A stretch of DNA of 64,000 nt from Candidatus Doudnabacteria bacterium (GCA_028286905.1 JAQBQP010000002.1:383430-447429), one strand, 5' to 3'. Positions 27,914 through 50,319 are shown, counted from the stretch's first letter. Program-made: numbers and translations. The notes: generated from the sequence alone by a model not told the origin.

Positions 27914-27988
27914 TGCCCGGTAGCCAAGTGGTAAGGCAGGGGCCTTTGAAGCCTCCATTCGCAGGTTCGATCCCTGCCCGGGCAGCCA
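27914..27988 (+). tRNA. tRNA-Gln (anticodon UUG)
   Basis: Cloverleaf TGCCCGG/CCGGGCA acceptor, anticodon arm GGGGC-CTTTGAA-GCCTC, T-arm GCAGG-TTCGATC-CCTGC, discriminator G, encoded CCA. Confidence 0.85.
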
Positions 27989-28021
27989 GACCAAACACGT
28001 TTCCCCGCTGACCTAGCGGGG
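27983..28021 (+). repeat. att-like direct repeat, copy 1, overlapping the last 6 nt of tRNA-Gln
   Basis: CAGCCAGACCAAACACGTTTCCCCGCTGACCTAGCGGGG; matches 50272-50309 with one indel. Confidence 0.8.
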
Positions 28022-28066
28022 TGAGTAAAAACAGTTAATAATATTTTAATAATGGAAAGTTATAAT

Positions 28067-30862: not shown

Positions 30863-31513
30863 CTAGCGGGCAAACTCCCCCGCCCAAGTTCCCAAGTAAG
30901 GGCCATGACAGGTCACGCTAAAGTTTAAAGGTTTTTGAAACAAAGGATTAAAAGCAGTGCCGTCGGATTTATAGAAATTTCTTTGGGTGACCACCATTGT
31001 GTCATGCGTATCTTTTGGATTGGATTGCAACTCACTTGGGATATCAATGAAATCTAGATGTGACTTGTAGGAATCATTCAATGTTAAGTCGCAGTTAGCC
31101 CAGTCAAGAGAGTTTAAATTCTTTATAGTAAATACTGGCTGGTCATCAAATTCTGAACCCATAGCTTCCATTGCGGTAGTTCGAAGAACCTTTAGGTTCA
31201 TTATTTCTTGAGGCTGGGTCGTAGCTGAGTTTTCGCTAGGAGTATTTAGGAAATGGTCTTTGAGCATTGCATAAGTCATGAATGCAAAAGTTAGAATGAA
31301 AAATCCTACCAAGATTTTATTTTTTGTTTTACTTAAATCTATTGATTGCACCGGCTTATTCTCAGGCATTTTTTTGAGTCTTTCTGCCAGCGTAGAAACA
31401 CAAAGCCCCACGCTAGCTGGGCCGTGAAGCCCCATACCAGTTTCCCGGTATGGCTCGTAAAAGCGCTGAACGTGGGGTTCAGTATCTTTTACGAGTCTTT
31501 GTGCCATGCTCAT
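30863..31513 (-). CDS. Hypothetical single-pass membrane protein
   Basis: 216 aa: cytoplasmic N-terminus, one transmembrane helix (ILVGFFILTFAFMTYAML) and an extracytoplasmic domain; convergent with the GHKL gene. Confidence 0.5.
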   Translation of the reverse strand: MSMAQRLVKDTEPHVQRFYEPYRETGMGLHGPASVGLCVSTLAERLKKMPENKPVQSIDLSKTKNKILVGFFILTFAFMTYAMLKDHFLNTPSENSATTQPQEIMNLKVLRTTAMEAMGSEFDDQPVFTIKNLNSLDWANCDLTLNDSYKSHLDFIDIPSELQSNPKDTHDTMVVTQRNFYKSDGTAFNPLFQKPLNFSVTCHGPYLGTWAGEFAR

Positions 31514-31559
31514 ATTCCTATAAGTTTAGGCTTATTATTAAGTTGTTAATGTAATTATA

Positions 31560-32882: not shown

Positions 32883-32904
32883 ACACACATTAAGCCGCAC
32901 ACAA

Positions 32905-32944
32905 GGATATATAGCAAGCGGGGCTATAGTGGATAAATATAGAC
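32905..32944 (+). repeat. About 31 bp conserved site, copy 1 (TATATAGCAAGCGGGGCTATAGTGGATAAATAT), between the divergent recombinase and HEPN-like genes
   Basis: 29 of 31 positions identical to 41335-41370 on the same strand. Confidence 0.7.
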
Positions 32945-32986
32945 AAAAAACTCTCTGTTTTTGCTTATATTTGTTAAAATACTGCC

Positions 32987-33754
32987 ATGAAGATAAATCC
33001 ATATTTTCGGACAACGCTAGCAAAACCTTTCCAGGGTAAATTTTTACACGAAGCAGGTGCTGAGGTAATTCTAAATATTCCTATTAATTCAAAAACAATT
33101 GGAAACTTTATCATAATGCTTCCAGATCCAGTTTCTCTAAACTTAAATAATGCCCAAGCTTTTATAGATAAGTGGGTAAAACTAAAAGAACGCATCAATA
33201 AATCAAAAAACTTCACCGTTTACAGCAGCGCTCTTTCTGAGGATGACATATCGGGTAAAAGCCAAGAACAAATAAAACACTTGGATCCTAATGCAAATTT
33301 TTATAGAACCTTAGATGAGGAAAAAGTGTTTGAGTGTATACAAAGTAGTATAGGCGTGGTTATCTCCTTAATCACTGCTATGGAAGCCTTCGTTAATGTT
33401 GTCATTCCTCATGATTACATTTTGCAGAGGACTAATAAACGAAGTGAAAAAGAAAATCTAAATAAAGATTCTATTGTAAAAAAACTATCTATTTCGGAAA
33501 AGATAATTTTAATTGCAGATATAAAAGGCAAGGCGGACTTGAAAGAACAAGTATTCTGGTCAACTTTTCACGAAGTAAAAAAATTGAGAAATGATATTAT
33601 TCATTTCAAAAAAACTGACGCTAACATAAATAATATGTGGGCTCCTATAATTATCGGTTTCCTAGATTCCGATTTACAGAAATTTTTTGATCACTTCGTA
33701 ATTATGATTGATTATCTTCACTCTGGTTATTTAGATACTAAAACTAATATCTAG
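32987..33754 (+). CDS. HEPN-like (Abi-type) hypothetical protein
   Basis: 255 aa, predicted all-alpha, with an Rx4H motif KKLRNDIIHFK near the C-terminus; divergent from the recombinase. The start may instead be the internal Met at about 33114. Confidence 0.5.
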   Translation: MKINPYFRTTLAKPFQGKFLHEAGAEVILNIPINSKTIGNFIIMLPDPVSLNLNNAQAFIDKWVKLKERINKSKNFTVYSSALSEDDISGKSQEQIKHLDPNANFYRTLDEEKVFECIQSSIGVVISLITAMEAFVNVVIPHDYILQRTNKRSEKENLNKDSIVKKLSISEKIILIADIKGKADLKEQVFWSTFHEVKKLRNDIIHFKKTDANINNMWAPIIIGFLDSDLQKFFDHFVIMIDYLHSGYLDTKTNI

Positions 33755-34479: not shown

Positions 34480-34794
34480 TTAATCAAGAGTATTTTTCTT
34501 CACAAATACACCTTCTATCCCATCGTACAACATGTGTAATTTGCCGTCATTAGTTAGTTTTATTTTGGTTCGCTCTTCTCTCGGAGCCGAAGGTTGATTG
34601 GTTACCAAATAATCTCCTTCTATTTGATAAGTTAGAAAAATATACTGATTTTTATCACCTTCTGACGTGGAGTAGGTCAATTTGCCATCTGCTTGAAAGT
34701 TCATTGTCACATCACCAAATTTATTATAGGCTTTCTTATTATCGCCATCCGGTGCTAGTACCCATATACCAATAATTTGTGTTTGTGTATCCAT
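34480..34794 (-). CDS. Small protein immediately downstream of RHS-1; candidate cognate immunity protein
   Basis: 104 aa; its ATG lies 1 nt after the RHS-1 stop; predicted soluble beta-rich protein. Confidence 0.55.
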   Translation of the reverse strand: MDTQTQIIGIWVLAPDGDNKKAYNKFGDVTMNFQADGKLTYSTSEGDKNQYIFLTYQIEGDYLVTNQPSAPREERTKIKLTNDGKLHMLYDGIEGVFVKKNTLD

Positions 34795-34795
34795 A

Positions 34796-37700
34796 TTATT
34801 TATCCTTATCTCTTATAACATTTACTATGTAATTTTGAAAAGTTTTTAAGTAGTAATCCTTAGCTCTTTGAGAGGGGGTATAGCGCGAATTTCCGGTTTT
34901 AGTTTCTACTCCACCTAAAAGATTTCCTTTTTGATCCTTAACTTCTATATCTATCACTCTCTTACCTAAGAAAGTATCTTTTGTAACTTCTTTTTGAACT
35001 AACCTACCATCATTTTGCAATTGATTAGCGACGGTATCTCTAAATGCATCTCCCTTTGCCTTGTTTAATAATACATTAGCCTGTGGTACTTCGCTAACTG
35101 TATTGCTTTCAGATTGTAAACGTTGCCACGCTGATATTCCTGCTACGGTAGGAATTGCTGCTAATATATCCACTACCGCCAATGGTGCATCACCCACAAT
35201 AGCCGGAGCTAGCGGATGATCCATTAACCAATGCGCGCTAGAACTAGAACTATACCAATTATTTGCGTTGTTTCCAACATTTATAACAGCACCGTTCCAA
35301 GCGGCAGCGATTGACCACCTACCTGTGGGGTCTCTAAATAACAATGGGTTATTCCTACCATAACTATAACTATTCAAGCTCTGGGGGTCAGCTAAATAAC
35401 TTTGAGTGTCACTTCCGATCATCGCCATGAGAAGGCTTGTATTTCCCAAGGCCAAAAATGCAGAATCTTCGCTTACAAATCTCCCTATGATCGAATCGTA
35501 ATATCTTGCATTCATATAGTTCAAACCACTATCAGTATCCAACTCAGATCCTGCGTACTGACGTTGATCGCCATACGAACCAGCCTTTTGGTCTATCCTT
35601 ACTGACCCGAACGGTAAATAGTCTAGTAGTTCTTCCTGAACATCAGATGAGTTGGTGGTTATATTAGACCCTGTTAGATTATCCGTAGCTGTGGAATGAA
35701 CAACAGCACTTACTCCTGTACCAGTTACAGTTGCGATCTCAACTCCATTGGCGAAAATATGTTTAGTTTTAATAGTACCATCTGTGTTATAGGAACTCGA
35801 CGGGTAAACAGTGGTTGAGGAGCCTTTTGTGTAAGTTACTCGCTGACCCGTTGGGTCATATTTAAAGGTAACTGTATTTGACCCAGCGACTGTTTGGGTA
35901 ATCCGATTATTATAATCCCAAGTATTTGTATAAGAGGTACCTTTGGTTAACATGTTCCCATTATTATCATAGGTCAATGTCGCAGAACCAATAGTTGTCG
36001 CGGCGTTAGGGTTTGCATAGTTGCTGCCAGTATTTCCTGCATATGTGTAAGAGCCCGGTCCCGTTTTGCTAGTAATATTCCCTATCGCATCATACGCATA
36101 ATTTTCTGTGTATGTTGATTGCCCAGATGCTACGCCAGTTGCCGTAGCTGAGGTTAAGCGATTTAAATCGTCATAGACATACGCAACAGTTTTACTAGAG
36201 TTGGTTCCGGAAGCATCTACGATCTGAGTAATGTTTCCATTATTATCATAAGTATAAGCCAAATCCTGTCCATGCACAGAACTTGCGATCGTCGTAACTT
36301 TATTAGTTAACCGGTAAAGCTTTGTAGCATCGTATGTGTTAGTTGTACTCATACCATTTGCATACGTTGCCGTAGTAACTTGCTCTACCGGGGAATAATC
36401 ATAATTTGAAACCACATTGATAAAACTGGCATCTGTAGATTCTTTTCTTTGCACAGAATTAAGCAGTCCTCCTGTATTAAAGACGTACTGTATCTGTGAA
36501 GAATCAGGATTTGTAATTGTCAGTTGGTTACCCTGGCGATCATAGGTATCGCTAGTAAGATAGGTTGTCGAATTAATAACTTTACTTTCACTCTTTAATC
36601 CCCCGTTCGGGTTATATGTATTTGTTTGGGTAACACTTGCACTCGTAGTACCAGTTAGATGACCCTTACCATCTGTTCCTGAGTCATATGTATTAGTTAC
36701 TTCTGTTCCCGCAGCTCCTGTATAGTCCTCTGTTAGCTGACGGTTGATGTCATCATAGGTATAGTTAACGGTCTGACTCTTCGGATCTACAACCTGGGTT
36801 ATATTTCCCGTATCGTCGTAGGTATACGCCCAACTTCCGTAGGTCGAATCAGCTGACGCGTGTAGGTCTTGCGCAGTTAATCGCCTACCTAAACCATCAT
36901 AAGTAAAGTTTCTCACATTGCTCAATGCATCGGTAATGTTTGTAAGATTATTATTAAGATTCCAAGTGTACGTAGTTGTATAGGTTGAAGCAGAATTGTT
37001 TTCTTCTACCTTTATCAAATTACCATAAGCGTCCTTGTATAGATTTTTTGTCTTACTACGTGGGTCGGTAATAGTAACTTTAAAGCCAAAATAACTATTA
37101 CTTGTTGTTCCAACATTATTTTGCTGAGTTAAGATTCGATCTAAAGGATCGTAAGTATAAGTTATAAATAGACTCGTAGTACTAGTTGGCGAGGTCTTAC
37201 TTGAACCGCTGCTTGCATATGGCAAGGATTCTTGCGACAAGCGACCCGCTGTATCATATACATAATCCTTGGTCGTAAATGATCCTGATGTTTCAGTTTC
37301 TTTGCGCGTCTGTAACAATCGACCTCGACCATCGAAATACTGGTATGTATCGACTCCGTTACTACCGTCTAGATAATCTGTGCGTTGAACAGAAAGAGCT
37401 CCAGAAGTATCCGTATAAACATAAGTAGTCTTAGTCACGGAAGAACCACTAGAAGGATCGGGCATCTTCTCTTCAATCAAGCGACCAAATCCATCATAAT
37501 TTGTTGTCCAAACTCTGCTATTTGGATCCGTCATTGTTGCAACCTTGCCATTCAAGTAATTGTAAGTGTAAGTAGTTGCTTGAGTTAATGGGTTTGTAAC
37601 AGTTGCTGGATAAAGATTATTAATGTCATAAGCATAGGTCGTCACTTTACCTCGTGGATCTGTGGAGGTAGCGACGGTACCATTTGAGTTGTATGTTTTT

Positions 37701-40700
37701 TGAGAATTTATATAAGTAGCGCCTGTTTTCCACTGTTCAATTTTTGTTAGATTACCAACACTAACAGAGCCATAGGCAAGGGTATCAAAGTAATATTTAG
37801 ATTCGTTAACTTTTGCTGCAGATGTATCTGTAACGGTAATATCCTTTGGCACAGTTACGTTAGTTGTGCTATTTGTTGCATAGGCATAAGTTGTAACCTT
37901 TTTATCAGAACCCATGTCTGTAAATGTCCCATCCGTAGCGCCTGTGACCTGACCCCAATCCGTTTGAGTAGCTAAAGTACCATCTGCATTATTATAGGTG
38001 TACTCTGTGGCAGTATCAGTATGGGTAGAGGTTCCATCGTATTGCTCTACAACATCTTTTAATTTTCTTACGAAATCTCTGCCTGTAGCAATATTGTATT
38101 TATCCCATATATCAATCGAACGATTATACAGATTATTAGATAAATCAAAGCGTTCCGATCGATACGCTAAACCAATTTTAGAAACATCATCGTTAGCTTC
38201 GTAGCTTGCTGAGTCATTTGAATCGCCTTGATGATAATAAGTAACTGTTTTACCTGAGGGGTCTGTTGCGGTTACAGTTTGAAAACCGGCAAATTTCTTT
38301 CCTGTATCCAAAGAGTAATAATTTCTGCCATTTACATAATCGTATTGAGTTACTTCATTTGAACCTACGTCAGGAACTACGGTCATTTGCTGAACAACAA
38401 GTTTGGTTTCTCCAATGGTATTGGGTTCATCTTGTTTGCCAATAATAGCAACTTGCTTATAATCGACATTCGTAGTTACACCTCTATTTGAGATAGAACT
38501 AATTAGATCGCTTTTTTTGCCTTGAGTAATATAACCCTTGCTATCTAAAGAACCATAGTTATATATATAATCTATAGCTATGCCGTCAGCATATAAATAA
38601 TCAATTACACCATCGCCATTCAAATCGTATGGCCTAGCGCGATCACCATAGCGAGCCGAAAATTTATCAGATGGAATAATGTAAGTTGACGCTGTATCTT
38701 GTATTAAATTAGTTCCAGTATTTTTATATACATTGGAGTCAATGATGTCGGGTAAATTATCAGCATTAGCATCTATAATTCTTGAAGGGCCGTCAGTTGT
38801 TTCATTGCTTGCCAAAGTATTAGCTACAAAAGCAAATGTTCTATGATCACCGTTTGGACCTGTATATAAATCAGGCATCGCCCAATCAGTTGAAGGTGTA
38901 TTACGATACCATCCATGCCCATTATTAATGTAAACAGCAGTGTCTGTATTCGTAGCTGGAACTCCGCCCGAACCCCTAATTGCATCTGCCAAAACAATAT
39001 CAACTAATCCGTCGTTATTTATATCGCTATACTGAAAATCATTAGAACCATTATCTATATTAGGTATCTCAAAACAAGGGTCATAGACCCAACCACTTCC
39101 TGTATTTCTGAAGTAACCTCCGCGAGCTTGCCCAGAACAGACACTAGCTGCCTCTATATTAGGATCAATAATATCTGGTAGACCATCGCCGTTAACATCT
39201 ATTAAATCAGCGTGAAAATTAATTGGCGCTACATTAGATACATTGTTCGGAGCTGAGTAACTAGTAAAAGAACTAGGATATGTTGGTAAACGCCATCCCG
39301 TGGGAGTACTCCAACCTGTCCCTGTATTTATAAATACAGTAGCATTTTTCTCATAACAGCTGGTTCCAGAATTATCCATACATCCCGTTGCGTATACCAC
39401 GTCCATCAAACCATCCCCATTAACATCAGAAAAACGTACAGGATTACCAGTAACACCACCAGAAGCCACAATTTGCTCAAATCTAATAGTAGACGCTGGA
39501 CCCGAACTTGGAGTATATACATTAGGAAGTTGCCAAGCTGAATCATAAGCCCAGCCATGGGTATTATTAATAAATACAGCCGCAGTATTCCAATAACAAC
39601 TGGTAACGGCTCCAATACAACCCCCTCCGGTCACGACATCTTGTAACCCATCGCCATTTAAATCCACAAACTTAGTAGAAGCCGGTTGGATTATAAAGGT
39701 ATAATCACTTCCATTATTACTGTAGAGGGTAGGAAAGTCTGTAGAAGAAGCGTAAGACCACCCAGAGCCACTATTGTTCTGAAGTTGCGGTGGAATATCC
39801 GAAGGGCCACCTTTCCAAGCTAAATATTTACTTCCGTCGCTATTGATTATGTCCGGCAAACCATCATCATTGGCATCTAAGACATCCGTGTATGTATTAG
39901 TTCCGTAACTAGGAAAATTTAAAGTAGGAGGGGTACGTGATGCCCCAGACCATGTATTTTGAAAAGTTGGAAGCTGCCAATTTGCAAGACTATTGGTTCC
40001 TTGCGCCGCTGCTTGATATGAGAAAGTAATCGCCGGCTGCGATACTTCTGATCCTGAAGTTGGATCTTTTGCTTTTTGGGTTATAGAAGAAAGTAGCGAT
40101 CTGTATCCGTTTACTCCCGTAGTGTAAGCAAGCGCAACGCGACTCTGCCATACTGAGCTTATCTTTGTTTCAATCAAATTTATTCGGTAATTAGTTGAGA
40201 CAGCAAATCCAGCGAAGTACTTGTTAAACCCACCTGTAGAAGATTCTCTTGAAAAATCTATTTCATAAATAGATCCATATGTTATTGCACTAGGATATAT
40301 CTGCCCCGCGTCTTTGTAATACGTATAATTGATGGTGTTTCCATTTGCATCAGTAACACTAGTTAAATACCATCTGAAAATATGAGTGCTGTCACTTGGG
40401 TCATCTTGACGAGTTGCTGCACTGCTCCCAAAAACATAAACAGTCCCTGACTTATCTGTTACTGTCCACGCACTGCTTGAGAAATCGTATTTTCTAAAAT
40501 CTCCTCGCTCTACTTTGGCAGCATAGGAATTACCAGAAATAAAGGTTAAATCATCATCAAGGGAAGAATAATAATCTTTATAGGTACTGTTATATAAATC
40601 TCCGCTTCCATGTTTATTTTCTCTCTCAATGTAAGGTATGTCTAAGCTCCAACCATAGCCAACAATCGAATCATCTCGTAAGTTTTGACTATTATAAGAA

Positions 40701-41245
40701 ATGTTAATACTTGGTGTGAGATTATTCCTGCCTGGAGGAACAACTACCGGATAAGAATAATGCAGAGCTCCCGTGTTACCTAAAACAGATGCCTTTTGAT
40801 TTGATAAGGCCTGCTGTGAATAAACAAGTTTTTGGTCTCCTGTTTCCCCTCCTGTGCTACCTACTCCAGAAGCGTTAGAAACTATTCCACCGGAAGTAGT
40901 TTTAGGAGTTTTCGTTTTAACCTTAGTGCCATTTTTAGCTTCTTCTTTTTCAATTTCTTTTTCTTGTCTCGCGGACACTTCCTGTTCATAAGGAGATTTA
41001 ATCGCGCCTCCCTGAGTAGGGTCATCGTACCCAGAGCTAGTAGACGTATCAGGTGGAATAGATGTAGGGGTAGTAGATAAAGAAGTACTACTGGTGGAGG
41101 AATCCGCTGTGGGCGTAGCAGAACTATCCACAGTGCTAGCTGCTGGTTCATCAGCAAAAACTGGAGCTAGTGGAGTTAAAACAAATAAAAAAGCTAACAG
41201 CACACCTGTTAACTTGCGAACAAAAGCTCCACGAAAAATTTTCAT
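34796..41245 (-). CDS. Giant RHS/YD-repeat polymorphic toxin-like secreted protein (RHS-1)
   Basis: 2149 aa with a signal peptide, a Thr/Ser/Pro-rich linker, FG-GAP/VCBS-like DxNGDGxxD repeats, long YD repeats and the RHS core ending at DPTGRW (DPxG autoproteolysis motif). A divergent roughly 190 aa C-terminal tip containing ...GKRVIDIEVKD... follows. Confidence 0.9.
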   Translation of the reverse strand: MKIFRGAFVRKLTGVLLAFLFVLTPLAPVFADEPAASTVDSSATPTADSSTSSTSLSTTPTSIPPDTSTSSGYDDPTQGGAIKSPYEQEVSARQEKEIEKEEAKNGTKVKTKTPKTTSGGIVSNASGVGSTGGETGDQKLVYSQQALSNQKASVLGNTGALHYSYPVVVPPGRNNLTPSINISYNSQNLRDDSIVGYGWSLDIPYIERENKHGSGDLYNSTYKDYYSSLDDDLTFISGNSYAAKVERGDFRKYDFSSSAWTVTDKSGTVYVFGSSAATRQDDPSDSTHIFRWYLTSVTDANGNTINYTYYKDAGQIYPSAITYGSIYEIDFSRESSTGGFNKYFAGFAVSTNYRINLIETKISSVWQSRVALAYTTGVNGYRSLLSSITQKAKDPTSGSEVSQPAITFSYQAAAQGTNSLANWQLPTFQNTWSGASRTPPTLNFPSYGTNTYTDVLDANDDGLPDIINSDGSKYLAWKGGPSDIPPQLQNNSGSGWSYASSTDFPTLYSNNGSDYTFIIQPASTKFVDLNGDGLQDVVTGGGCIGAVTSCYWNTAAVFINNTHGWAYDSAWQLPNVYTPSSGPASTIRFEQIVASGGVTGNPVRFSDVNGDGLMDVVYATGCMDNSGTSCYEKNATVFINTGTGWSTPTGWRLPTYPSSFTSYSAPNNVSNVAPINFHADLIDVNGDGLPDIIDPNIEAASVCSGQARGGYFRNTGSGWVYDPCFEIPNIDNGSNDFQYSDINNDGLVDIVLADAIRGSGGVPATNTDTAVYINNGHGWYRNTPSTDWAMPDLYTGPNGDHRTFAFVANTLASNETTDGPSRIIDANADNLPDIIDSNVYKNTGTNLIQDTASTYIIPSDKFSARYGDRARPYDLNGDGVIDYLYADGIAIDYIYNYGSLDSKGYITQGKKSDLISSISNRGVTTNVDYKQVAIIGKQDEPNTIGETKLVVQQMTVVPDVGSNEVTQYDYVNGRNYYSLDTGKKFAGFQTVTATDPSGKTVTYYHQGDSNDSASYEANDDVSKIGLAYRSERFDLSNNLYNRSIDIWDKYNIATGRDFVRKLKDVVEQYDGTSTHTDTATEYTYNNADGTLATQTDWGQVTGATDGTFTDMGSDKKVTTYAYATNSTTNVTVPKDITVTDTSAAKVNESKYYFDTLAYGSVSVGNLTKIEQWKTGATYINSQKTYNSNGTVATSTDPRGKVTTYAYDINNLYPATVTNPLTQATTYTYNYLNGKVATMTDPNSRVWTTNYDGFGRLIEEKMPDPSSGSSVTKTTYVYTDTSGALSVQRTDYLDGSNGVDTYQYFDGRGRLLQTRKETETSGSFTTKDYVYDTAGRLSQESLPYASSGSSKTSPTSTTSLFITYTYDPLDRILTQQNNVGTTSNSYFGFKVTITDPRSKTKNLYKDAYGNLIKVEENNSASTYTTTYTWNLNNNLTNITDALSNVRNFTYDGLGRRLTAQDLHASADSTYGSWAYTYDDTGNITQVVDPKSQTVNYTYDDINRQLTEDYTGAAGTEVTNTYDSGTDGKGHLTGTTSASVTQTNTYNPNGGLKSESKVINSTTYLTSDTYDRQGNQLTITNPDSSQIQYVFNTGGLLNSVQRKESTDASFINVVSNYDYSPVEQVTTATYANGMSTTNTYDATKLYRLTNKVTTIASSVHGQDLAYTYDNNGNITQIVDASGTNSSKTVAYVYDDLNRLTSATATGVASGQSTYTENYAYDAIGNITSKTGPGSYTYAGNTGSNYANPNAATTIGSATLTYDNNGNMLTKGTSYTNTWDYNNRITQTVAGSNTVTFKYDPTGQRVTYTKGSSTTVYPSSSYNTDGTIKTKHIFANGVEIATVTGTGVSAVVHSTATDNLTGSNITTNSSDVQEELLDYLPFGSVRIDQKAGSYGDQRQYAGSELDTDSGLNYMNARYYDSIIGRFVSEDSAFLALGNTSLLMAMIGSDTQSYLADPQSLNSYSYGRNNPLLFRDPTGRWSIAAAWNGAVINVGNNANNWYSSSSSAHWLMDHPLAPAIVGDAPLAVVDILAAIPTVAGISAWQRLQSESNTVSEVPQANVLLNKAKGDAFRDTVANQLQNDGRLVQKEVTKDTFLGKRVIDIEVKDQKGNLLGGVETKTGNSRYTPSQRAKDYYLKTFQNYIVNVIRDKDK

Positions 41246-41334
41246 GTAAATTTATTTAATTGCTATTTCTTTAAAAATATACTCTTCGTAATTGCTTGTC
41301 AAAGAATTTAATAAATATTTAACAATTTCTTAAT

Positions 41335-41370
41335 ATCTATATAGCAAGTGGGTCTATAGTGGATAACTAT
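41335..41370 (+). repeat. About 31 bp conserved site, copy 2 (TATATAGCAAGTGGGTCTATAGTGGATAACTAT)
   Basis: Direct-orientation near-identical copy of 32905-32944, upstream of RHS-1 and of ORF 41400. Confidence 0.7.
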
Positions 41371-41399
41371 TAGGTTGAACAAAAGAATCCAATCAAAAC

Positions 41400-41741
41400 T
41401 TGGAAATCGGCAAAGAAGAAAAGGATGAAAATTTATTTTCACCCGACCCAACAGATGCCAATCTTGCATTGGCTTGGCTGAGGATTGAAGTTGAAAAAAG
41501 AATCCGTAAAATTGCTGAAATAAATGATGTAAAAGATACAAACCGAGGTGTTTCGCTTTTATTACACCAATTAGTTTTAAAAGGGTTTTTTGATGAAAGT
41601 ACGACTAGTGGCTTGGCTAATCTATTAAGTATTTTAAACGGTGTTCAGGCCATAACAAAAGGCAATCAATTGATAGGTATTCTGAATGCTAAAATACGTT
41701 TTGAAAGCAAGAAAAAGATTGCTGCAATAATTTCTGCTTGA
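41400..41741 (+). CDS. Hypothetical small ORF (TTG start, no in-frame ATG)
   Basis: 113 aa ORF between the two RHS genes on the opposite strand. It depends on a TTG start, and its upstream region carries copy 2 of the 31 bp site. Confidence 0.2.
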   Translation: MEIGKEEKDENLFSPDPTDANLALAWLRIEVEKRIRKIAEINDVKDTNRGVSLLLHQLVLKGFFDESTTSGLANLLSILNGVQAITKGNQLIGILNAKIRFESKKKIAAIISA

Positions 41742-41761
41742 TTGTTTTACCCTAGTTGGTG

Positions 41762-42202
41762 TTAGATACCAGAAACAGTTGGGTATTCGTAAAGACTTTT
41801 AGCTATTCCATCATAATACTTTTTAAAGTATTTATTATCCCGTTCGATGTCCCATTCTTTTAAGTACGTGAAAAAACCAAATTCTCCTTGCTCACAAAGT
41901 TCCTTTACAGCACTCAACATGTTTTCCAGTGTTACCTTTTCCAAAACAATCATTCCAGGAGCAGCCTCAAATGGGTGATGGATATCGGCGTTGCGTTTTA
42001 AGGATAGCTCTAAATTATTAATATCATAAAATGTAACCTGGTAACACTTACCGTTTTGAAGCTCTACCAAAACAAACTGAATCCAACCGTTCTCTTTTAC
42101 CTCAGCGGCCATTCTATCATCAAAACCGCCATAAAATTTTAATTTTGGCCAAACGTCATTTTGATTTAAGGTCAGAGGATGGGGTAAATTTAAGTCCTTC
42201 AT
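41762..42202 (-). CDS. Small protein downstream of RHS-2; candidate cognate immunity protein
   Basis: 146 aa whose start overlaps the 3' end of RHS-2 by about 47 nt, the overlap typical of toxin-immunity pairs. Confidence 0.55.
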   Translation of the reverse strand: MKDLNLPHPLTLNQNDVWPKLKFYGGFDDRMAAEVKENGWIQFVLVELQNGKCYQVTFYDINNLELSLKRNADIHHPFEAAPGMIVLEKVTLENMLSAVKELCEQGEFGFFTYLKEWDIERDNKYFKKYYDGIAKSLYEYPTVSGI

Positions 42203-45200
42203 ATGGTTTGGTTTGTATCTTATTTAATGATTCTTGAAACTGTTTTGGGGTAAGGTTTACTCCCTTTTTTGGAACTATTGAGCCATGCCCATTACTACCC
42301 TGTAGAATTTCCAGTTGATCAGGAATACTAATTATTTGATTTGCTCCTCCATATTTTACAACATTTGCATTAGCTGGATCAATATTTACTGAAGGGCCTT
42401 GTGTTCTTCCTACATATCCTGTCTTTGGATCAACTGTAAAGTCTGCGCCCGCCCTACCAGTGAGATCAAAACTTCCACCTCCGCGGTAAAAGCCACCTTC
42501 AACAGATACATTACCTTCAGGAATTGGAATGCCATCAACTGAAATCATATCACCCATAAATATAAACTGCGGTTGATATTTCTTTGTCTGCGCATATTGT
42601 TGAGGCTCATAAACAGGATCGGCTTGCAATATTTTGGGTTGTAATAATCCGATAACTATAAGTGTAATAAGATCGTCAATACCGAAAAATTTTCCTGTTG
42701 GGTCTGTATATTTTAGAGGATTATTTCGAGCATAGCTATAACTATTTAGAGCTTGAGGGTCTGTTAGAAACACTAGCCCATCTTTATCCGTGTCTTTCTT
42801 GATGAGGCTTGGAGAGCCTACTTCCAGAAAGGCAGGATCTTCACTTTGAAATCTCCCGGTTGCTTGATCATAATATCTTGCATCCATATAAGTAAGCCCA
42901 GTGTCGGCATCAAATTCATGTCCGGCAAACTTACGTTGTTCACTAAATGTGCCTGCTTTTTCGTCTAATCTGGATGTACCAAATGGGTAATAATCCAACA
43001 ACTCGTCTTGCGCTCCAACAGCATTAAGCACAATATTACTACCCGTTAAATTATCAGTAACGGTATTGCGAGCGACTGCTGTAGTCCCAGTTCCTGAAAT
43101 TGTCGCCACATCCATACCGTTTGCAAAAATGTGTTTAGTTATATTTGTGCCGTCCGTATTATATAACTTGGTTGGGTAAGCTACAACAGTTGAACCATTT
43201 ACGTATTTTGCTCTTTCTCCATTTGCATCATAGGCATAAGCTATGGTTGTAGATCCAGCAACAGTTTGAGTGAGACGATTATTATAGTCCCAAGTATTTG
43301 TATAGGATGTTCCTTTAGTTAAGACATTTCCATTTCTGTCGTAAGTGAGTCCGACAGAACCTATTGCAGTTACTGCATGAGGATTCGCATACAAGGTTCC
43401 TGTATTACCTGAGTACGCATATGTTCCGGTGATATCAGATTTGGTTAGTAAATTACCGATCGCATCATAAGTGTAAGTTTCTGAATGGTTGTTACTGTTT
43501 ACTGCACTTGTGGTAGTCATCGAGGCCAAGCGATACAAGTCGTCATAGCCATAAGCTACATTCTTCTTTGTGTTAGTCGTAGAATTATCTACAATTGCAG
43601 TTATATTTCCAACGTTATCATAGGTATAAGAAACATCTTGGAATTTAGGATTAAAGTTTACTGTTGCGGTTCTGGTTGTAGAACCTGAACTATTACTTGC
43701 AGTTAACGTATAAGTAGTTGTCGTTGTTGGGCTTACAGATGTGGAGCCATGCCCAAACATGCCCCCAACGCCATTATCAATACTAAAGGTTGTCGGCGTA
43801 CCTCCTGAGACCGTCCAAGTTAACGTCGAACTATGCCCTGAACTAATATTTGCGGGCGTTGCTTGAAAAGTATTAATTACTGGTGCGATACTTGTGTTTC
43901 CTATAATCCAAGAGTAAATAGTGCCCCACCAATTGGTGGCAAAGAGCGTTGCAGTATTGGGATCAAATAATAATGCGTAGACTGAATTTCCGAAACTGGA
44001 ACCTGGAAGACCGGTACTCATTTCTGACCAATTTGTACCGCCGTCAGTTGAAGTTTGCACCCTAGCACCATTGAATACCGAATATAAAGTTGTGTGGCTT
44101 TGTGGACTTATTATCATTCCATCATGGGCAACAAAACCATTTAGATCGGTAATTTTGGTCCAAGTGCTTCCCGAGTTAGTAGTTTTATAAAGATGATTTT
44201 GATTTGACCAGGAATCCACTGATGCCACATATATTGTACTAGTACTGGTAGGGTCTATTACTAATGCTGTCATCTTTGTGGTGGAGTTCAAAGTGTAGGT
44301 AAACACACGAGACCAAGAAGTTCCAGAGTTCGTCGTCTTGATCACTCCAGTATTTACTGAAGCATATAATGTACTTGGAGTCGTGGGGTCTATAACTAAG
44401 TCGTAGGGCAAGTCATTTGTGACACCGCTTGGATCATACACTTTAGACCAAGAAGTTCCAGAGTTCGTCGTCTTATAAATTCCAGTAGTATCGTTAACAA
44501 CGTAAACCGTTCCGGATGTTGCAGGATCAACTACCAAGTCAATATAATTTTGACAACTACTAATTGTCAGTCCACTATTTATTTCAGACCATGTTGTTCC
44601 CGCATCTGTAGATTTATAGACACTGCCATGCGCCCAGCATGAAGAGTCCCAATCTGTAGCGGCATATACTGTATTGTGATTCAGTGGATCCACAGCGATT
44701 GAATTTACTAACCAACTTGAGGTGGAAGTAATTTGTGTCCACGTTGTGCCGCTGTCCGTCGACTTATAAATTCCATTCCATGTGCCAGAATATTCTATTG
44801 TTGAATTAGTTGGATCCATCACCAAGGCTTTTGCAACTTGAGGAGAACCCGAAACCCCAGACCAGCTTGTAGAGATAGTATTGACTGCAGGTGTCGTTGG
44901 TGGAGTACCTGCTGATGAAGTAGGTGTTGTCAATTTATTACTTAACCGGTATAGATGGGCGGCATCATAAGTATTTGCTGTTATGATACCGTTCGCGTAA
45001 TCTGTTTCAGAAATTTGTCCAGTTGGAGAATAATCAAAGTTTGTGACAACGTCCGAATAACTTGAATCCGTAGATTCTTTTCTTTGAACTTGATTTAATA
45101 GACCCGCAGAATTATAAATATATTTTACCTGTGAACTATCAGGGTTGGTAATAATTAACTGGTTACCTTGTCTGTCATATGTGTAATCAGTTTCGTAGCT

Positions 45201-48200
45201 ATTTCCACCAATTACTTTTATCTCAGATTTTAATCCACCTAAGGGATTATACGTATTCGTTTGAGTCACTGCACTTGTTGTCGAAGAATAGAGATGACCT
45301 TTGCCGTCTGTCCCCGTGTCATACACGTAGGTGTTTTCTGTTCCGGTTGCTCCGGTGTAATCTTCAGTGAGTACTCTATTTATATTATCAAAGGTGTAAT
45401 TTGTAGTCTGACTTAAAGCGTCTACCTTCTGAGTTAAATTACCTGCGTCATCATAAACGTAAGCCCAGGTGCCATAAGTAGCATCGGCAGAAGCGTGAAG
45501 ATCTTGAGCAGTTAGATTTCTACCTAAACCATCGTAGGTAAAATTACGAACATTTCCAGAAGCATCGGTAATCTTTAATAGATCACCTAAGAAATCATAA
45601 ACATAATACGTACTATAGGTGCTACCGCTATTATGCTCATCGACCTGAATTAGGTTTCCATAAGCATTTTTATAGAAATCTTTGACTTTAGAATTTGCAT
45701 CATTTACAGTCAGTTTCCAGTCGTTATATGTGTTTGTGGTGGTACCTGCAGCATTTACAGAAGTTGTGATTCTATTCATTGGATCGTATGAGTAGACAGT
45801 ATAAAGTGCTGTGGTAATGGTTGGAGAAGTTTTAGTTGTTCCTATTGAGAAATATGGCAGAGATTCTTTATACAAGTTTCCCCTGCTGTCATATACATAA
45901 TCTTTTACCGAGAAATTACTGCCCTCTGCTTCTGTTCTTTCCTGTAATTTTCTACCTAGACCATCAAAATAGGTATAAACATCAACTGTTGTTGAAGAAT
46001 CTAGATAATTTGAAATCAAAGTCTTCACAGCACCAGAAGTATCTGTATAGATAGTAGTGTTTTTTGTAACCAACGTCGAAGGAGTAATTAAGTCCGGTTG
46101 ATCTTGTTCAACCAAACGATCTAGCCCATCATAAACGTTTTTAAACACTCTAGTATTAGGATCGGTTGTTTGTAAAACCTGTCCTGATGAATAATCATAC
46201 GTATTCGTTGTGACTTGAGAAAGTGGATTTGTTACCGTTGTTGGATACAGATGATAGGTATCATAAGAATACGATGTTGTTTTTCCTCTTGGGTCTGTAT
46301 CTACTGTAACGATTCCATAGGTACCATCATAAGTTTTTTGAGTATTAACAAATGTCGTACTCACTTTCCACATTTCGTGTTTAGTCTGATTTCCTTTTGT
46401 AACTGCTCCAAAAGATTGGGTATCATAATAATACTTATCCTCTTTTACTTTTGTAGCACTATGATCTGTTACAGAAATGTCATCGGGTAAACCAATAACA
46501 TTAGCTCCGTCTGTGGCATAGGTGTACGCGGTTGTAAAATCGTCAGTTCCAATATCAACGTAAGAACCATCGTCACTGCCAGTAACTTCACCTAGTTCAG
46601 TTTTCTGAGACACGTTTCCTGTTGAATTGTTATATAGGTAAGTTCTTGCAACATCTCGGTGTGTACTATCTCCGTCGTATGTTGAAGTGACAGTGCGGGT
46701 CACCCTTACAAATTTCTTTCCGCCTGTTAGATTGTAGCTATCCCATCTATTAATAACCTTTGAGAACAAACTGCCACTAGAATTAGCGACGGTCATGCGA
46801 TACATTTTTCCAATTTTCCAGTACTCATCGCTATACTCACCATGTGTGGAGTCACTTCCATTGCCTTGGTGAAAATATGAAGTCATTACATTTCCTGACG
46901 GATCTGTTTTAGTGATTACTCCAAAGCCTGCAAATTTACGGGTAGTAAAATCTCCACTGTCGAAATAAAAAGACCCTAAAGAATTCGAATATGTGTCGGT
47001 ACCGGTTGTTCCTAAACCATCGTTAGAAGTAACTTGATAAACTGTTTGGATTACATAAGGAAGTTTTGGGTTCAATCCGTTATAGCCAGACAGTGCTGAA
47101 GACTTGTAAGTAAACGTACTAGACCCACCAAAAGGAAAAGTTGTACTAGATAGTAGGTCTGTTGCTGCACTGTTGTTTATATAAATAGAAGTATACCCAT
47201 CCGTAATATCTGCCATCCCATCCCCATTCAAGTCTAAAATATCCGCGCTTGAACCATACCCGTTTGTAAAAGAGAATGTTCCAGGAGTATTCCAGCTAGT
47301 AGTATTCGAGGTCCAACCGTTACCAGTATTCAAATATGTTGTTCTATAAATTGCTCCGTACCAATTTATAGATTGGATCAAATCTGGTAAACCATCCCCG
47401 TTGACGTCCGCAAATCTAACCCCCAGATCTGAAGGATAGTACCCACTCAGATAAGAAGTTGTTAGTGCGGGTGTATAATCGGTGCTTGAAGTCCAGGTTC
47501 CTTTACCATCACCTAGATATGCGCTTGTATTAAACGTTGTACCTGTCCAAGCCAATCTTATAATGTCTTCCAAGCCATCACCGTTTAAATCTAAGAATGT
47601 AGCGTTATCGCCGCTTATAACAGGGAAAGTCCAGCTAGAACCCACGTCGCTGGTCCATCCAGAACCTGTGTTTAAATAAACATGTGCTGCGATTGAACCT
47701 CCCGAAATTGTATTTGATTGAAATATATCTGGAAGACCGTCTCCGTTTAAATCCACTATTCTCGTGCCAAAATCTGACCATAAATACGTAAAATTAATTG
47801 GAGAAGTCCAAGCCGTAGTTACTGTCCACCCACTGCCATTATTTATGTATGTGGCAGCTGTAATCGTACCAGAACTGTCTTTGTTCGAATATATTAAATC
47901 AGCCAAGCCATCGCCGTTTACATCAATAGCGTGAACATTAAAATCAATGTTACTTCCGGCATTAAATGATTTAAACGGGGTAGGAGCGTTGTATGCGGAA
48001 GACGCCGTCCAAGTGCCACTACTATTATTTAAATATGTAGCACGATAGTCAGTTCCGTTTGAAGCGGTGAAAGAAGTGATAATATCAGGCAAACCATCAC
48101 CATTTATGTCTGCAAATAAAGATCTTCCATCGAACGAGGTGTCTGATGGAAAAGACCAACTAGAATTCTGTGTCCAACCAGACGAAGTTGTGGACGTGTA

Positions 48201-49424
48201 CGCATTTGTTGTTGCTGGTAATGTAACGGTTGAGGTGGTAATTTCATCTGTTCCCGCTTCTGTTATAGATGTCAGTATAGAACGTGTACCGTTATCCCCT
48301 GTTGAGTACGCAAAGGTGTACTTACGAGTTATAGTACCATTTGTTTTTATGTCTATTTCGTAGATTCGATAATTCGTAGTTGTGAGAAAACCGCCTTGAT
48401 AAGATTTGGTTACATCACCCCTGGTTTGACGAAGGAAATCTATTTCAAAAATACCGGTCGTTACACCATTCCCCGTATAAATTATTGTATTTGGATAAAT
48501 TTGTCCACTGTCTTTGTAATATGTGTAGGTAATGTAGTTGCTGTTTGTGTCTCTTACTTCATCTAGCATCCACTTAACCACTTTAGAAGAATCCCCCGGA
48601 TTATCCTGTCTTGAACCAGACGCTGTACCAAATTTATAAATAGTTCCTTTTTTATCTGTCACTGTCCATGCAGTTCCATCAAAATTGTATTTAAGGAAAT
48701 CTCCATTTTCTACAGTAGACGCGTAAGTAGTTCCAGAAACAAAAGATAAATCTCCAGAAAGACTGGAGTTAAAATAATTATCAGTAAATAGAGTGCTTAC
48801 ACCTTTTTTATTTACTCTGGAAATATAAGGAACAGTGGTTGTCCATCCATACCCAACGGGACTATCACCAGAAACAGATTGGCTATTGTAAGCAAGTTTT
48901 AAATCCGGTTGCATTCCGTTTCGGCCAGGTGGAATTGTGATCGGATAACTTGAAACCAATGCTCCTGTTGTTTGATCAGGTTGTGGAATTATTTGCTTAG
49001 TTACGGTAGGCTGTGGCAATCCGGTTGCTACATCCTGTTGGATTAGTGCACTTGATTGTGGCGCAACTTTGACCTTTGAAGACTTAGCCGTTGCTGACAA
49101 AGGGTCAGAGCTCAAAGAATCAGTGGTAGGGTCAAGACCAGCAACATCAGGACCTGCTACTGTTGGATCAGTCACAGGCGCGGGAACGGCAGCATTAGGA
49201 GTGTTTACTACAGGATCGGTAAGGGGCGCAGTTGGAGTATCCACCACTACAGGGGAGCTAAGAGCATTACTAGGAGTATCTGATACGGGCGCAGAAATAA
49301 CAGTATTAGAAGTATCTGCGAAAACAGGAGCTAAAGGAGCTATAACAAATAAAAAAGCTAACAGAAAAACTGTTAACCGAGTTACTAGACGCCTCTTAAA
49401 TAGAGTTGCCATTATTTTGTTCAA
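42156..49424 (-). CDS. Giant RHS/YD-repeat polymorphic toxin-like secreted protein (RHS-2) with an embedded BNR/Asp-box beta-propeller
   Basis: 2422 aa with a signal peptide near-identical to RHS-1 (LLAFLFV..PLAPVFAD), FG-GAP-like repeats, YD repeats, six SxDxGxTW Asp-box repeats and a Thr-rich Ig-like segment. The RHS core ends at DPTGKF, followed by a roughly 190 aa C-terminal tip unrelated to that of RHS-1. Confidence 0.9.
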   Translation of the reverse strand: MNKIMATLFKRRLVTRLTVFLLAFLFVIAPLAPVFADTSNTVISAPVSDTPSNALSSPVVVDTPTAPLTDPVVNTPNAAVPAPVTDPTVAGPDVAGLDPTTDSLSSDPLSATAKSSKVKVAPQSSALIQQDVATGLPQPTVTKQIIPQPDQTTGALVSSYPITIPPGRNGMQPDLKLAYNSQSVSGDSPVGYGWTTTVPYISRVNKKGVSTLFTDNYFNSSLSGDLSFVSGTTYASTVENGDFLKYNFDGTAWTVTDKKGTIYKFGTASGSRQDNPGDSSKVVKWMLDEVRDTNSNYITYTYYKDSGQIYPNTIIYTGNGVTTGIFEIDFLRQTRGDVTKSYQGGFLTTTNYRIYEIDIKTNGTITRKYTFAYSTGDNGTRSILTSITEAGTDEITTSTVTLPATTNAYTSTTSSGWTQNSSWSFPSDTSFDGRSLFADINGDGLPDIITSFTASNGTDYRATYLNNSSGTWTASSAYNAPTPFKSFNAGSNIDFNVHAIDVNGDGLADLIYSNKDSSGTITAATYINNGSGWTVTTAWTSPINFTYLWSDFGTRIVDLNGDGLPDIFQSNTISGGSIAAHVYLNTGSGWTSDVGSSWTFPVISGDNATFLDLNGDGLEDIIRLAWTGTTFNTSAYLGDGKGTWTSSTDYTPALTTSYLSGYYPSDLGVRFADVNGDGLPDLIQSINWYGAIYRTTYLNTGNGWTSNTTSWNTPGTFSFTNGYGSSADILDLNGDGMADITDGYTSIYINNSAATDLLSSTTFPFGGSSTFTYKSSALSGYNGLNPKLPYVIQTVYQVTSNDGLGTTGTDTYSNSLGSFYFDSGDFTTRKFAGFGVITKTDPSGNVMTSYFHQGNGSDSTHGEYSDEYWKIGKMYRMTVANSSGSLFSKVINRWDSYNLTGGKKFVRVTRTVTSTYDGDSTHRDVARTYLYNNSTGNVSQKTELGEVTGSDDGSYVDIGTDDFTTAYTYATDGANVIGLPDDISVTDHSATKVKEDKYYYDTQSFGAVTKGNQTKHEMWKVSTTFVNTQKTYDGTYGIVTVDTDPRGKTTSYSYDTYHLYPTTVTNPLSQVTTNTYDYSSGQVLQTTDPNTRVFKNVYDGLDRLVEQDQPDLITPSTLVTKNTTIYTDTSGAVKTLISNYLDSSTTVDVYTYFDGLGRKLQERTEAEGSNFSVKDYVYDSRGNLYKESLPYFSIGTTKTSPTITTALYTVYSYDPMNRITTSVNAAGTTTNTYNDWKLTVNDANSKVKDFYKNAYGNLIQVDEHNSGSTYSTYYVYDFLGDLLKITDASGNVRNFTYDGLGRNLTAQDLHASADATYGTWAYVYDDAGNLTQKVDALSQTTNYTFDNINRVLTEDYTGATGTENTYVYDTGTDGKGHLYSSTTSAVTQTNTYNPLGGLKSEIKVIGGNSYETDYTYDRQGNQLIITNPDSSQVKYIYNSAGLLNQVQRKESTDSSYSDVVTNFDYSPTGQISETDYANGIITANTYDAAHLYRLSNKLTTPTSSAGTPPTTPAVNTISTSWSGVSGSPQVAKALVMDPTNSTIEYSGTWNGIYKSTDSGTTWTQITSTSSWLVNSIAVDPLNHNTVYAATDWDSSCWAHGSVYKSTDAGTTWSEINSGLTISSCQNYIDLVVDPATSGTVYVVNDTTGIYKTTNSGTSWSKVYDPSGVTNDLPYDLVIDPTTPSTLYASVNTGVIKTTNSGTSWSRVFTYTLNSTTKMTALVIDPTSTSTIYVASVDSWSNQNHLYKTTNSGSTWTKITDLNGFVAHDGMIISPQSHTTLYSVFNGARVQTSTDGGTNWSEMSTGLPGSSFGNSVYALLFDPNTATLFATNWWGTIYSWIIGNTSIAPVINTFQATPANISSGHSSTLTWTVSGGTPTTFSIDNGVGGMFGHGSTSVSPTTTTTYTLTASNSSGSTTRTATVNFNPKFQDVSYTYDNVGNITAIVDNSTTNTKKNVAYGYDDLYRLASMTTTSAVNSNNHSETYTYDAIGNLLTKSDITGTYAYSGNTGTLYANPHAVTAIGSVGLTYDRNGNVLTKGTSYTNTWDYNNRLTQTVAGSTTIAYAYDANGERAKYVNGSTVVAYPTKLYNTDGTNITKHIFANGMDVATISGTGTTAVARNTVTDNLTGSNIVLNAVGAQDELLDYYPFGTSRLDEKAGTFSEQRKFAGHEFDADTGLTYMDARYYDQATGRFQSEDPAFLEVGSPSLIKKDTDKDGLVFLTDPQALNSYSYARNNPLKYTDPTGKFFGIDDLITLIVIGLLQPKILQADPVYEPQQYAQTKKYQPQFIFMGDMISVDGIPIPEGNVSVEGGFYRGGGSFDLTGRAGADFTVDPKTGYVGRTQGPSVNIDPANANVVKYGGANQIISIPDQLEILQGSNGHGSIVPKKGVNLTPKQFQESLNKIQTKPYEGLKFTPSSDLKSK

Positions 49425-49492
49425 TTAAGATTTAATCTATTTTCAATATATTCTTTATTTGAATTGCTTGTCAAATCGATGTAAGTATGGCT

Positions 49493-50271: not shown

Positions 50272-50309
50272 CAGCCAGACCAAACACGTTCCCCGCTGAC
50301 CTAGCGGGG
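50272..50309 (+). repeat. att-like direct repeat, copy 2
   Basis: CAGCCAGACCAAACACGTTCCCCGCTGACCTAGCGGGG, followed directly by the ATCGCC hairpin module. Confidence 0.8.
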
Positions 50310-50319
50310 TTAAAAAAAT

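Follow-up and report, generated by a model that had tools for sequence, protein, structure and literature searches.

What is the purpose of two giant RHS/YD-repeat genes, and of the small genes behind them, in a 64,000-nucleotide stretch of a Candidatus Doudnabacteria genome (GCA_028286905.1, JAQBQP010000002.1:383430-447429; the whole stretch is hereafter called the window)? The organism belongs to the phylum Candidatus Doudnaibacteriota, which we take to be a member of the Candidate Phyla Radiation (CPR/Patescibacteria). RHS-1 (34796..41245) encodes 2149 amino acids (aa), and RHS-2 (42156..49424) encodes 2422 aa if TTG at 49424 is its start or 2418 aa if ATG at 49412 is, the ATG being the most likely choice. 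Each is followed by a small open reading frame (ORF), of 104 aa after RHS-1 (34480..34794) and of 146 aa after RHS-2 (41762..42202). All four genes and their features described below lie on the minus strand, and RHS-1 (MDB4940249.1), the 104-aa ORF (MDB4940248.1), and the 146-aa ORF (MDB4940251.1) are annotated at NCBI as "hypothetical protein." A sequence-only reading of the window had proposed a pair of paralogous polymorphic toxins with unrelated C-terminal tips and adjacent immunity candidates. All four ORFs were recovered where it had placed them, and the paralogy was borne out by 45% identity over 1185 aa, with 58% over the last shell segment (BLASTP). We conclude that RHS-1 and RHS-2 are likely two independently transcribed RHS/YD polymorphic-toxin cassettes of the "TcdB/TcaC type," carried by a CPR host, apparently on an element of ~22 kb, and working by the mechanism proposed below.

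Architecture of the RHS Proteins

Both proteins share one order of parts, namely a signal peptide, an SpvB-like domain, an FG-GAP propeller, a YD shell, an Rhs core, and a tip. The predicted Sec signal peptide of RHS-1 (aa 1-31, 41153..41245), read directly from the sequence, ends in PLAPVFA before an Asp, and the corresponding regions of the two proteins are near-identical in a global alignment (LLAFLFV..PLAPVFAD). An SpvB/TcB-like N-terminal domain (Pfam PF03534), placed at aa 156-313 of RHS-1 (40307..40780), is matched by both proteins with an E-value of 2.7e-16. The propeller of DxNGDGxxD repeats (aa ~430-900 of RHS-1, 38546..39958; Pfam FG-GAP_3 and alignment) scores E 7e-10 in RHS-1 and 7e-22 in RHS-2, and the YD/RHS repeat shell (aa ~950-1875 of RHS-1, 35621..38398) is recognized in both by RHS_repeat (PF05593; E 2.9e-28 and 5.1e-19, respectively) as well as by TIGR01643. 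The Rhs-associated core (TIGR03696) occupies aa 1876-1975 in RHS-1 (35315..35620; E 2e-14), ending in NNPLLFRDPTGRW, and aa 2145-2244 in RHS-2 (42687..42992; E 1.1e-17), ending in NNPLKYTDPTGKF. The RHS/YD polymorphic-toxin architecture proposed earlier was thus supported by Pfam and NCBIfam domain matches in both proteins.

The motif that demarcates the end of the Rhs core has been defined as PxxxxDPxGL (PMC8636562). The cores end in PLLFRDPTGR in RHS-1 and PLKYTDPTGK in RHS-2, and both tip boundaries fit this motif, with R or K replacing the final L; PxxxxDPxG at the end of the RHS-1 core is the predicted aspartyl autocleavage site. In the global alignment, every 50 residues contain between 22 and 39 identities throughout the shell and core, and between 4 and 8 directly past DPTGRW (RHS-1) or DPTGKF (RHS-2), so that the tips are indeed unrelated beyond a conserved core. 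They are shorter than the roughly 190 aa first given for them, measuring 172 aa in RHS-1 and 176 aa in RHS-2. The GC content of the tips (0.38) nearly equals that of the shells (0.38-0.41), so composition does not point to a recent exchange of tips. Elsewhere in the window, no orphan remnants of an Rhs core or a tip were found.

Each gene is preceded by a promoter-like site of its own. The site upstream of RHS-1 (TTGACAAGCAATT...TATATT, 41274..41302) was identified by consensus match only, and the site upstream of RHS-2 (TTGACA-18-TATATT, 49445..49474) agrees with the consensus at 11 of 12 positions; the 13-nt block TTGACAAGCAATT containing the -35 element and the -10 element TATATT are common to both. 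The separate sites and the common -35 block suggest that RHS-1 and RHS-2 are two transcription units and that the promoter was duplicated along with the gene.

The YD shell of RHS-2 is interrupted by an insertion of ~410 aa (aa 1505-1915, 43680..44912) that has no counterpart in RHS-1 and that the sequence-only reading had not mentioned. A Sortilin-Vps10/BNR (Asp-box) propeller makes up its first part (PF15902, E 4.5e-18, with a partial match to NF045728); the stretch behind the propeller has an Ig-like appearance by eye and no domain match. No such insertion was found among the RHS proteins of the 39 genomic loci that carry relatives of the RHS-1 tip (see below). The propeller may be a built-in binding module. 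Since propellers of the FG-GAP and BNR kinds, like an Ig-like-looking stretch, typically serve in binding, and CPR bacteria attach to host cells, one could regard both proteins as teneurin-like surface adhesins or attachment proteins of an episymbiont, the C-terminal domains of which are never released. We regard this as most improbable, given that the Rhs core retains an intact PxxxxDPxG and that both tip families, as described below, occur almost only at the C-termini of polymorphic toxins and have linked small genes.

The Tip of RHS-1

Tip 1 (aa 1978-2149, 34799..35314) opens with a hydrophobic and low-complexity linker (Kyte-Doolittle values between 1.4 and 2.1 at tip residues 36-60), after which comes the toxin domain (aa 2055-2149, 34799..35083). 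For the last 95 aa we found 17 protein homologs and 39 loci in species-representative genomes, distributed among Proteobacteria, Bacteroidota, Gemmatimonadota, Nitrospirota, Planctomycetota, Verrucomicrobiota, Chloroflexota, Actinomycetota, and Acidobacteriota. In all 39 loci the domain ends at the stop of its reading frame or at most ~25 codons from it. The shortest of these frames are remnants of 68 aa and the longest exceed 2750 aa; YD repeats or an Rhs core occur in many of them, and at some loci (L002, L021) core-plus-tip cassettes stand in arrays. Such a distribution defines a polymorphic-toxin tip.

Six residues are invariant in the 48 aligned sequences (R2069, D2099, K2116, Q2126, K2129, and D2130), and two more, D2070 and E2114, are retained in 47. 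The secondary-structure ranges of the tip-1 model place D2099 on strand 2 and E2114-T-K2116 on strand 3, i.e., in the classical D...(D/E)xK arrangement, and the model has the alpha-beta-beta-beta-alpha-beta core of the PD-(D/E)xK superfamily. The fold and the intact, conserved catalytic set support tip 1 as a PD-(D/E)xK-fold nuclease, nucleic acid being its presumed substrate. The earlier suggestion of such a nuclease therefore held for the fold class, and its catalytic lysine had to be moved. The D-I-E-V-K motif then put forward was rejected, as position 2103 holds Lys in only 6 of the 48 sequences and Ser in 28; the lysine that never varies is K2116 of E-T-K.

The Pfam scan gave no match to Tox-REase models for the tip of the window (E<=10) or for three of its relatives (E<=1), the only matches being MTES_1575 for the tip itself (E 0.019) and VRR_NUC for one relative (E 0.083). 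Judging by model names, we presume that Pfam covers only Tox-REase clades 2, 3, 5, 7, and 9. Ten such clades were listed by Zhang et al. (2012; PMC3482391). Sequence searches of the PDB with the single tips and both small ORFs yielded nothing useful, and PADLOC had no match for either tip or either small ORF.

Genes Downstream of Tip-1 Toxins

The 104-aa ORF, a candidate immunity or accessory protein for tip 1, starts 1 nt past the RHS-1 stop. Its relatives, hereafter family B, were found at 15 of the 39 tip-1 loci with 30-41% identity to it and share the invariant pattern G.W...F..DG.L...QPSxP..E.T, including a conserved motif QPSAPxEERT; Pfam and NCBIfam gave only weak matches to Lipocalin_4 and TIGR03066. 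A second gene, of ~200 aa (family A), is the more regular companion, following the toxin immediately or within ~250 nt at 35 of the 39 loci; two of its representatives match Pfam DUF4304 (E 4e-13 and 2e-17). In 14 loci the DUF4304 gene is succeeded by the ~100-aa family B gene, often with overlapping stop and start (e.g., L011:6625-7239 and 7239-7556). A toxin directly followed by family B was observed in two cases only, the window and L036, where the toxin is a remnant. The 104-aa ORF thus has a genuine link to the tip-1 toxin family, although of the two partners DUF4304 is the more constant.

The near-universal place of DUF4304 downstream of tip-1 toxins suggests that it is the immunity protein of this family. 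Our literature search on DUF4304 and immunity retrieved no report, and neither DUF4304 nor the tip-1 motif occurs in Zhang et al. (2012), where the module of DUF4304 and family B is likewise not described (PMC3482391). No DUF4304 was detected in any frame of the window. The true immunity gene may accordingly have been lost from the window, the 104-aa ORF being something else. RHS-1 would then be tolerated because the producer cannot be re-intoxicated or because the toxin has another target, such as the host bacterium of the epibiont, or else the 104-aa protein would be an accessory factor or chaperone. We consider this explanation improbable, albeit with an appreciable chance of being correct: DUF4304 stands directly after the toxin at 35 of the 39 loci, and family B follows it in 14 of its 15 occurrences. 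Such a loss, however, fits poorly with an RHS-1 frame that is intact over 2149 aa and retains all catalytic residues, with the position of family B immediately after the toxin in both the window and L036, and with its conservation at 30-41% identity with an invariant QPSxP..E.T. In addition, the family B start elsewhere overlaps or abuts the upstream DUF4304 gene, as is typical of co-translated partners.

We therefore favor the 104-aa protein as the immunity factor for tip 1, since RHS-1 is intact and catalytically complete and the small gene abuts its stop; the missing DUF4304 partner makes this role plausible rather than secure. The idea that the small downstream genes are toxin partners stood up as far as linkage is concerned, since both recur beside the same tips in unrelated genomes, and for the 104-aa gene it was weakened on the point of immunity.

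The Tip of RHS-2 and Its Downstream Gene

Tip 2 (aa 2247-2422, 42159..42686) begins with a hydrophobic segment (Kyte-Doolittle 2.1 at residues 1-20) and a linker, and its toxin domain comprises tip residues ~63-162 (42201..42500), with a conserved unit of ~95 aa. An exhaustive HMMER search through all 1.84 billion representatives gave 205 relatives at E<=1e-3. A word- or k-mer-seeded search had returned nothing, which in view of the HMMER result reflects low sensitivity and not absence; word-seeded searches even missed the window's own proteins, though these are cluster representatives in the 15-billion-protein collection. Close relatives were not found in viral contigs or in the JGI metagenomes. 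The conserved unit lies at most 27 residues from the C-terminus in 147 of 148 proteins, and copies on other delivery domains, for which a search had been proposed, did turn up: the carriers among 28 long family members include RHS repeats (10 proteins), the eCIS core (4), PT-HINT (3), DUF6531, and PT-TG.

The tip had been thought to match no toxin family and to represent a possible new effector domain, which proved wrong. The ADPRTs_Tse2 model (PF18648) is matched by 21 of the 32 domain sequences scanned against Pfam (best E 1.1e-7), and a precomputed PF18648 annotation is attached to many homologs. The profile of the family aligns to Tse2 (5AKO) with an E-value of 0.028 over a region spanning G-x-S ... 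IPxxLK..Q ... H-x-x-I-x-P, Foldseek returned Tse2 as the first hit for tip 2 (probability 0.90), and tip 2 displays the Tse2/ADP-ribosyltransferase (ART) fold. Judged by profile, intermediate sequences, and Foldseek, tip 2 is a divergent member of the Tse2-like ART-fold family (PF18648) and not a new effector domain. We know of no target of Tse2. In a review the protein is reported to induce quiescence, with an NAD-dependent ADP-ribosyltransferase activity ascribed to it on structural grounds and no target given (PMC6099711).

Seven positions are conserved in at least 95% of the family (R68, G97, S99, P122, L125, H134, and P139). Position 136 is Glu in 118 of 144 sequences (82%); a subgroup of 15 members has Val there, and Tse2 has Thr. 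The third-nearest relative of the window's tip 2 has Gln, and tip 2 itself and its two nearest relatives have Ser. This substitution, together with a PF18648 score of only 15.0-16.1 bits (E 0.018-0.041) against a gathering score of 26.6, might indicate that tip 2 is a Tse2-like domain that has degenerated or been repurposed and is devoid of ART-type activity, with a binding role or none. We judge this unlikely. Tse2 itself, which is reported to be toxic (PMC6099711), has Thr at position 136 and a whole subgroup has Val, so Glu is not essential to the family, and R68, S99, and H134 are all retained in tip 2. Furthermore, the linked 146-aa gene has been conserved together with the tip, which implies continuing toxicity.

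The start of the 146-aa ORF, which is the immunity candidate for tip 2, precedes the stop of RHS-2 by 47 nt, so that the ORF overlaps the 3' end of the toxin gene. The closest relative of tip 2 is found in P0018 (L040:4913-6070, 385 aa), with 67% identity over 164 aa. This protein is a "mini-RHS," in which a similar signal peptide leads straight into the final shell segment, with the core and the Tse2-like tip behind it; its form suggests either a product of deletion or a self-contained cassette that has retained its export signal. One nucleotide past its stop (L040:6072-6467, on three contigs) begins a 131-aa gene with 53% identity to the 146-aa ORF (E 2e-50). It starts with MWPKLKFYGG, equivalent to residues 17-26 of the 146-aa ORF, so that the WPKLKFYGG N-terminus is conserved; as ATG 42202 is the sole in-frame start upstream of WPKLKFYGG in the window, the overlapping ORF call is correct. 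The genes behind two more distant Tse2-like toxins, 111 aa and 167 aa in size (the latter read as ankyrin-like), are unrelated to the 146-aa ORF. The immunity family of this ORF is therefore specific to the subclade, as immunity families usually are. No match to the 146-aa protein was obtained from Pfam, NCBIfam, PADLOC, or the PDB (E<=10), including Tsi2 in 5AKO.

Proposed Mechanism

From their signal peptides, we infer that each RHS protein would be exported by Sec. By homology to the TcB-TcC and Rhs structures, the YD repeats would form a closed shell around the tip with the SpvB/FG-GAP part as its lid, and the aspartyl protease of the Rhs core, the motif of which is present, would cut after PxxxxDPTG(R/K). 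The freed tip might then be delivered into a neighboring cell by a speculative route, for which the Sortilin/BNR propeller of RHS-2 and the hydrophobic openings of both tips are equally speculative candidates as binding or translocation aids. Tip 1, given its fold and catalytic set, would act as a metal-dependent PD-(D/E)xK nuclease on a presumed nucleic acid substrate, and tip 2, given its family and fold, as a Tse2-like growth-arresting toxin. Conserved gene linkage suggests that the 146-aa protein would neutralize tip 2 and that the 104-aa protein would neutralize, or help to neutralize, tip 1, the producer and its kin being protected.

Several observations weigh against this interpretation. 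Export, cleavage, toxicity, and neutralization are all steps that we infer. DUF4304, the usual partner at 35 of the 39 tip-1 loci, is missing from the window, and the 104-aa protein may not be the true immunity factor, or not the only one. The window's tip 2 remains below the PF18648 gathering score, the Foldseek match to Tse2 is weak by absolute measures (E 0.35, TM 0.38), and with Ser at position 136, where 82% of the family have Glu, the domain could have an altered activity or none. Finally, no delivery partner or receptor could be identified within the 64 kb: the window contains no TcA-like, PAAR, VgrG, or type VI secretion system (T6SS) genes, and RHS-1 and RHS-2 are the only products exceeding 700 aa.

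The lack of such a partner bears on a further alternative, in which RHS-1 and RHS-2 would be Tc-toxin-like BC subunits directed at eukaryotic cells and dependent on a TcA-type translocator encoded elsewhere. This appears very unlikely to us, because each RHS protein has a Sec signal peptide of its own and both tip families have linked immunity genes, as is typical of inter-bacterial toxins (PMC3482391); a TcA-like ORF, moreover, is not among the genes of the 64 kb, where only the two RHS genes are longer than 700 aa.

A bolder extension of the cassette model for this reduced-genome bacterium would combine four elements: the RHS proteins as TcA-independent, self-targeting delivery devices; the BNR propeller in the RHS-2 shell as a receptor-binding module; travel on an island with a serine recombinase; and family B as a hitherto unrecognized, self-sufficient immunity protein that can replace DUF4304 for an unnamed restriction endonuclease (REase) clade. 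As a whole we consider it unlikely. If it were true, competing epibionts or the host bacterium could be targets of the toxins, and not kin only.

Genomic Context

Both cassettes reside between two direct repeats of 39-40 bp with the sequence CAGCCAGACCAAACACG(T)TTCCCCGCTGACCTAGCGGGGT. The left copy (~40 bp; 27983..28022, plus strand) begins in the last 6 nt of a tRNA-Gln gene (27914-27988), and the right copy (39 bp with one indel) is located at 50272..50310 on the same strand. The ~22.3 kb between them contain, in addition to the RHS cassettes, a gene of a large serine recombinase (31560-33023), a methylase/REase-like pair, a LOOT RNA, and a weakly HEPN-like ORF. Direct repeats around a recombinase, one of them abutting a tRNA gene, are the arrangement of a genomic island, and the region is probably an integrated mobile element; its GC content does not set it apart. 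The region before 27.9 kb is occupied by housekeeping genes (ATP synthase, LepA, MurJ, FtsW, MurD, and a family-4 glycosyltransferase at the MraY position).

The left end of the island (28127-30851, plus strand) encodes a C5 cytosine DNA methylase and then a HATPase_c_3 plus Hypoth_Ymh protein that matches PADLOC "REase_II" (E 5e-38), a pair resembling a restriction-modification system. The LOOT RNA (Rfam RF03000, 75.7 bits; 31419-31532, minus strand) lies directly downstream of the serine recombinase gene and overlaps the 5' end of a mechanically called ORF (30863-31513); our literature searches on it returned name collisions only. A 255-aa ORF (32987-33754, plus strand) has weak DUF3644 and CARF_HEPN-like PADLOC matches (E ~5e-4) and may be a HEPN-type defense gene. 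Between the two RHS cassettes, on the opposite strand (41400-41741, plus), there is a 113-aa helical-looking ORF with no match in Pfam or PADLOC. GC content reaches 0.48-0.54 between 54000 and 58000, compared with ~0.39 elsewhere in the window, and an ORF of 664 aa (55564-57558) in this stretch combines an ECF sigma-70 domain at the N-terminus with a long extension at the C-terminus.

Implications

Functions can thus be offered for four "hypothetical proteins" of a Candidatus Doudnabacteria metagenome-assembled genome. The lifestyle presumed for CPR bacteria is one of attachment to host cells. In this CPR genome, ~14 kb, on an apparently mobile island, are spent on two encapsulated toxins with different chemistries. 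The analysis defines a widespread PD-(D/E)xK toxin clade that is not modeled in Pfam, together with its usual partners, DUF4304 and a protein of ~100 aa, and so provides a testable function for DUF4304 and family B. The Tse2-like family gains an RHS-borne subclade that lacks the Glu. The general picture of polymorphic toxins is unchanged, the less ordinary points being the CPR host, the unmodeled REase clade with its DUF4304 and family B module, represented in the window by family B alone, the propeller inside the RHS-2 shell, and the placement on a putative 22-kb island.

Comparison with Known Systems

Among the closest known parallels are the TcB-TcC cocoons of Tc toxins (Photorhabdus TcdB2-TccC3 and Yersinia entomophaga YenB-YenC), which likewise comprise an SpvB-like domain, an FG-GAP beta-propeller, a YD/RHS shell, an Rhs core with the aspartyl autocleavage motif, and a hypervariable C-terminal toxin (PMC8636562; PMC3482391). 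In contrast to TcB-TcC, RHS-1 and RHS-2 each consist of a single fused polypeptide that bears a Sec signal peptide of its own and have no TcA within 64 kb, their tips are of inter-bacterial types with linked small genes, and RHS-2 has the additional Sortilin/BNR propeller in its shell. The "TcdB/TcaC" type of RHS polymorphic toxin and secretion was already catalogued by Zhang et al. (2012; PMC3482391).

The T6SS Rhs effectors, such as Photorhabdus Rhs1 and Pseudomonas aeruginosa Tse5, also have a YD shell around the tip, aspartyl autocleavage, and a downstream immunity gene (PMC8636562). They differ from the proteins described here in that Pfam detects no PAAR- or VgrG-binding N-terminus in RHS-1 or RHS-2, which bear a signal peptide instead, and the window has no T6SS genes. 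The WapA/WapI system of monoderm bacteria is similar by description, combining a Sec signal, a YD shell, a nuclease-type polymorphic tip, and a downstream immunity gene. Again by description, WapA has wall-binding repeats instead of SpvB and FG-GAP, and its tips are tRNases; WapA is mentioned in PMC8636562.

Among the tips, tip 1 resembles the Tox-REase clades, which are C-terminal REase-fold toxins with a D-[EQ]xK site borne by RHS and other carriers (PMC3482391). The signature listed for Tox-REase-6 ("E, D, ExK, Q, Y") is similar to that of the tip-1 family, and the signature listed for Imm54 ("GF, Q") to that of DUF4304. Tse2 of Pseudomonas aeruginosa (5AKO) is a free-standing effector dependent on the T6SS and Hcp, whereas tip 2 is RHS cargo; the two share only ~19-22% identity, and the 146-aa partner has no sequence similarity to Tsi2. 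In another CPR lineage, Saccharibacteria, a genome with an RHS toxin beside an immunity gene has already been reported (PMC6031116). The system considered here is accordingly not a new kind of system but a well-known design of bacterial weapon in an unusual, CPR host.

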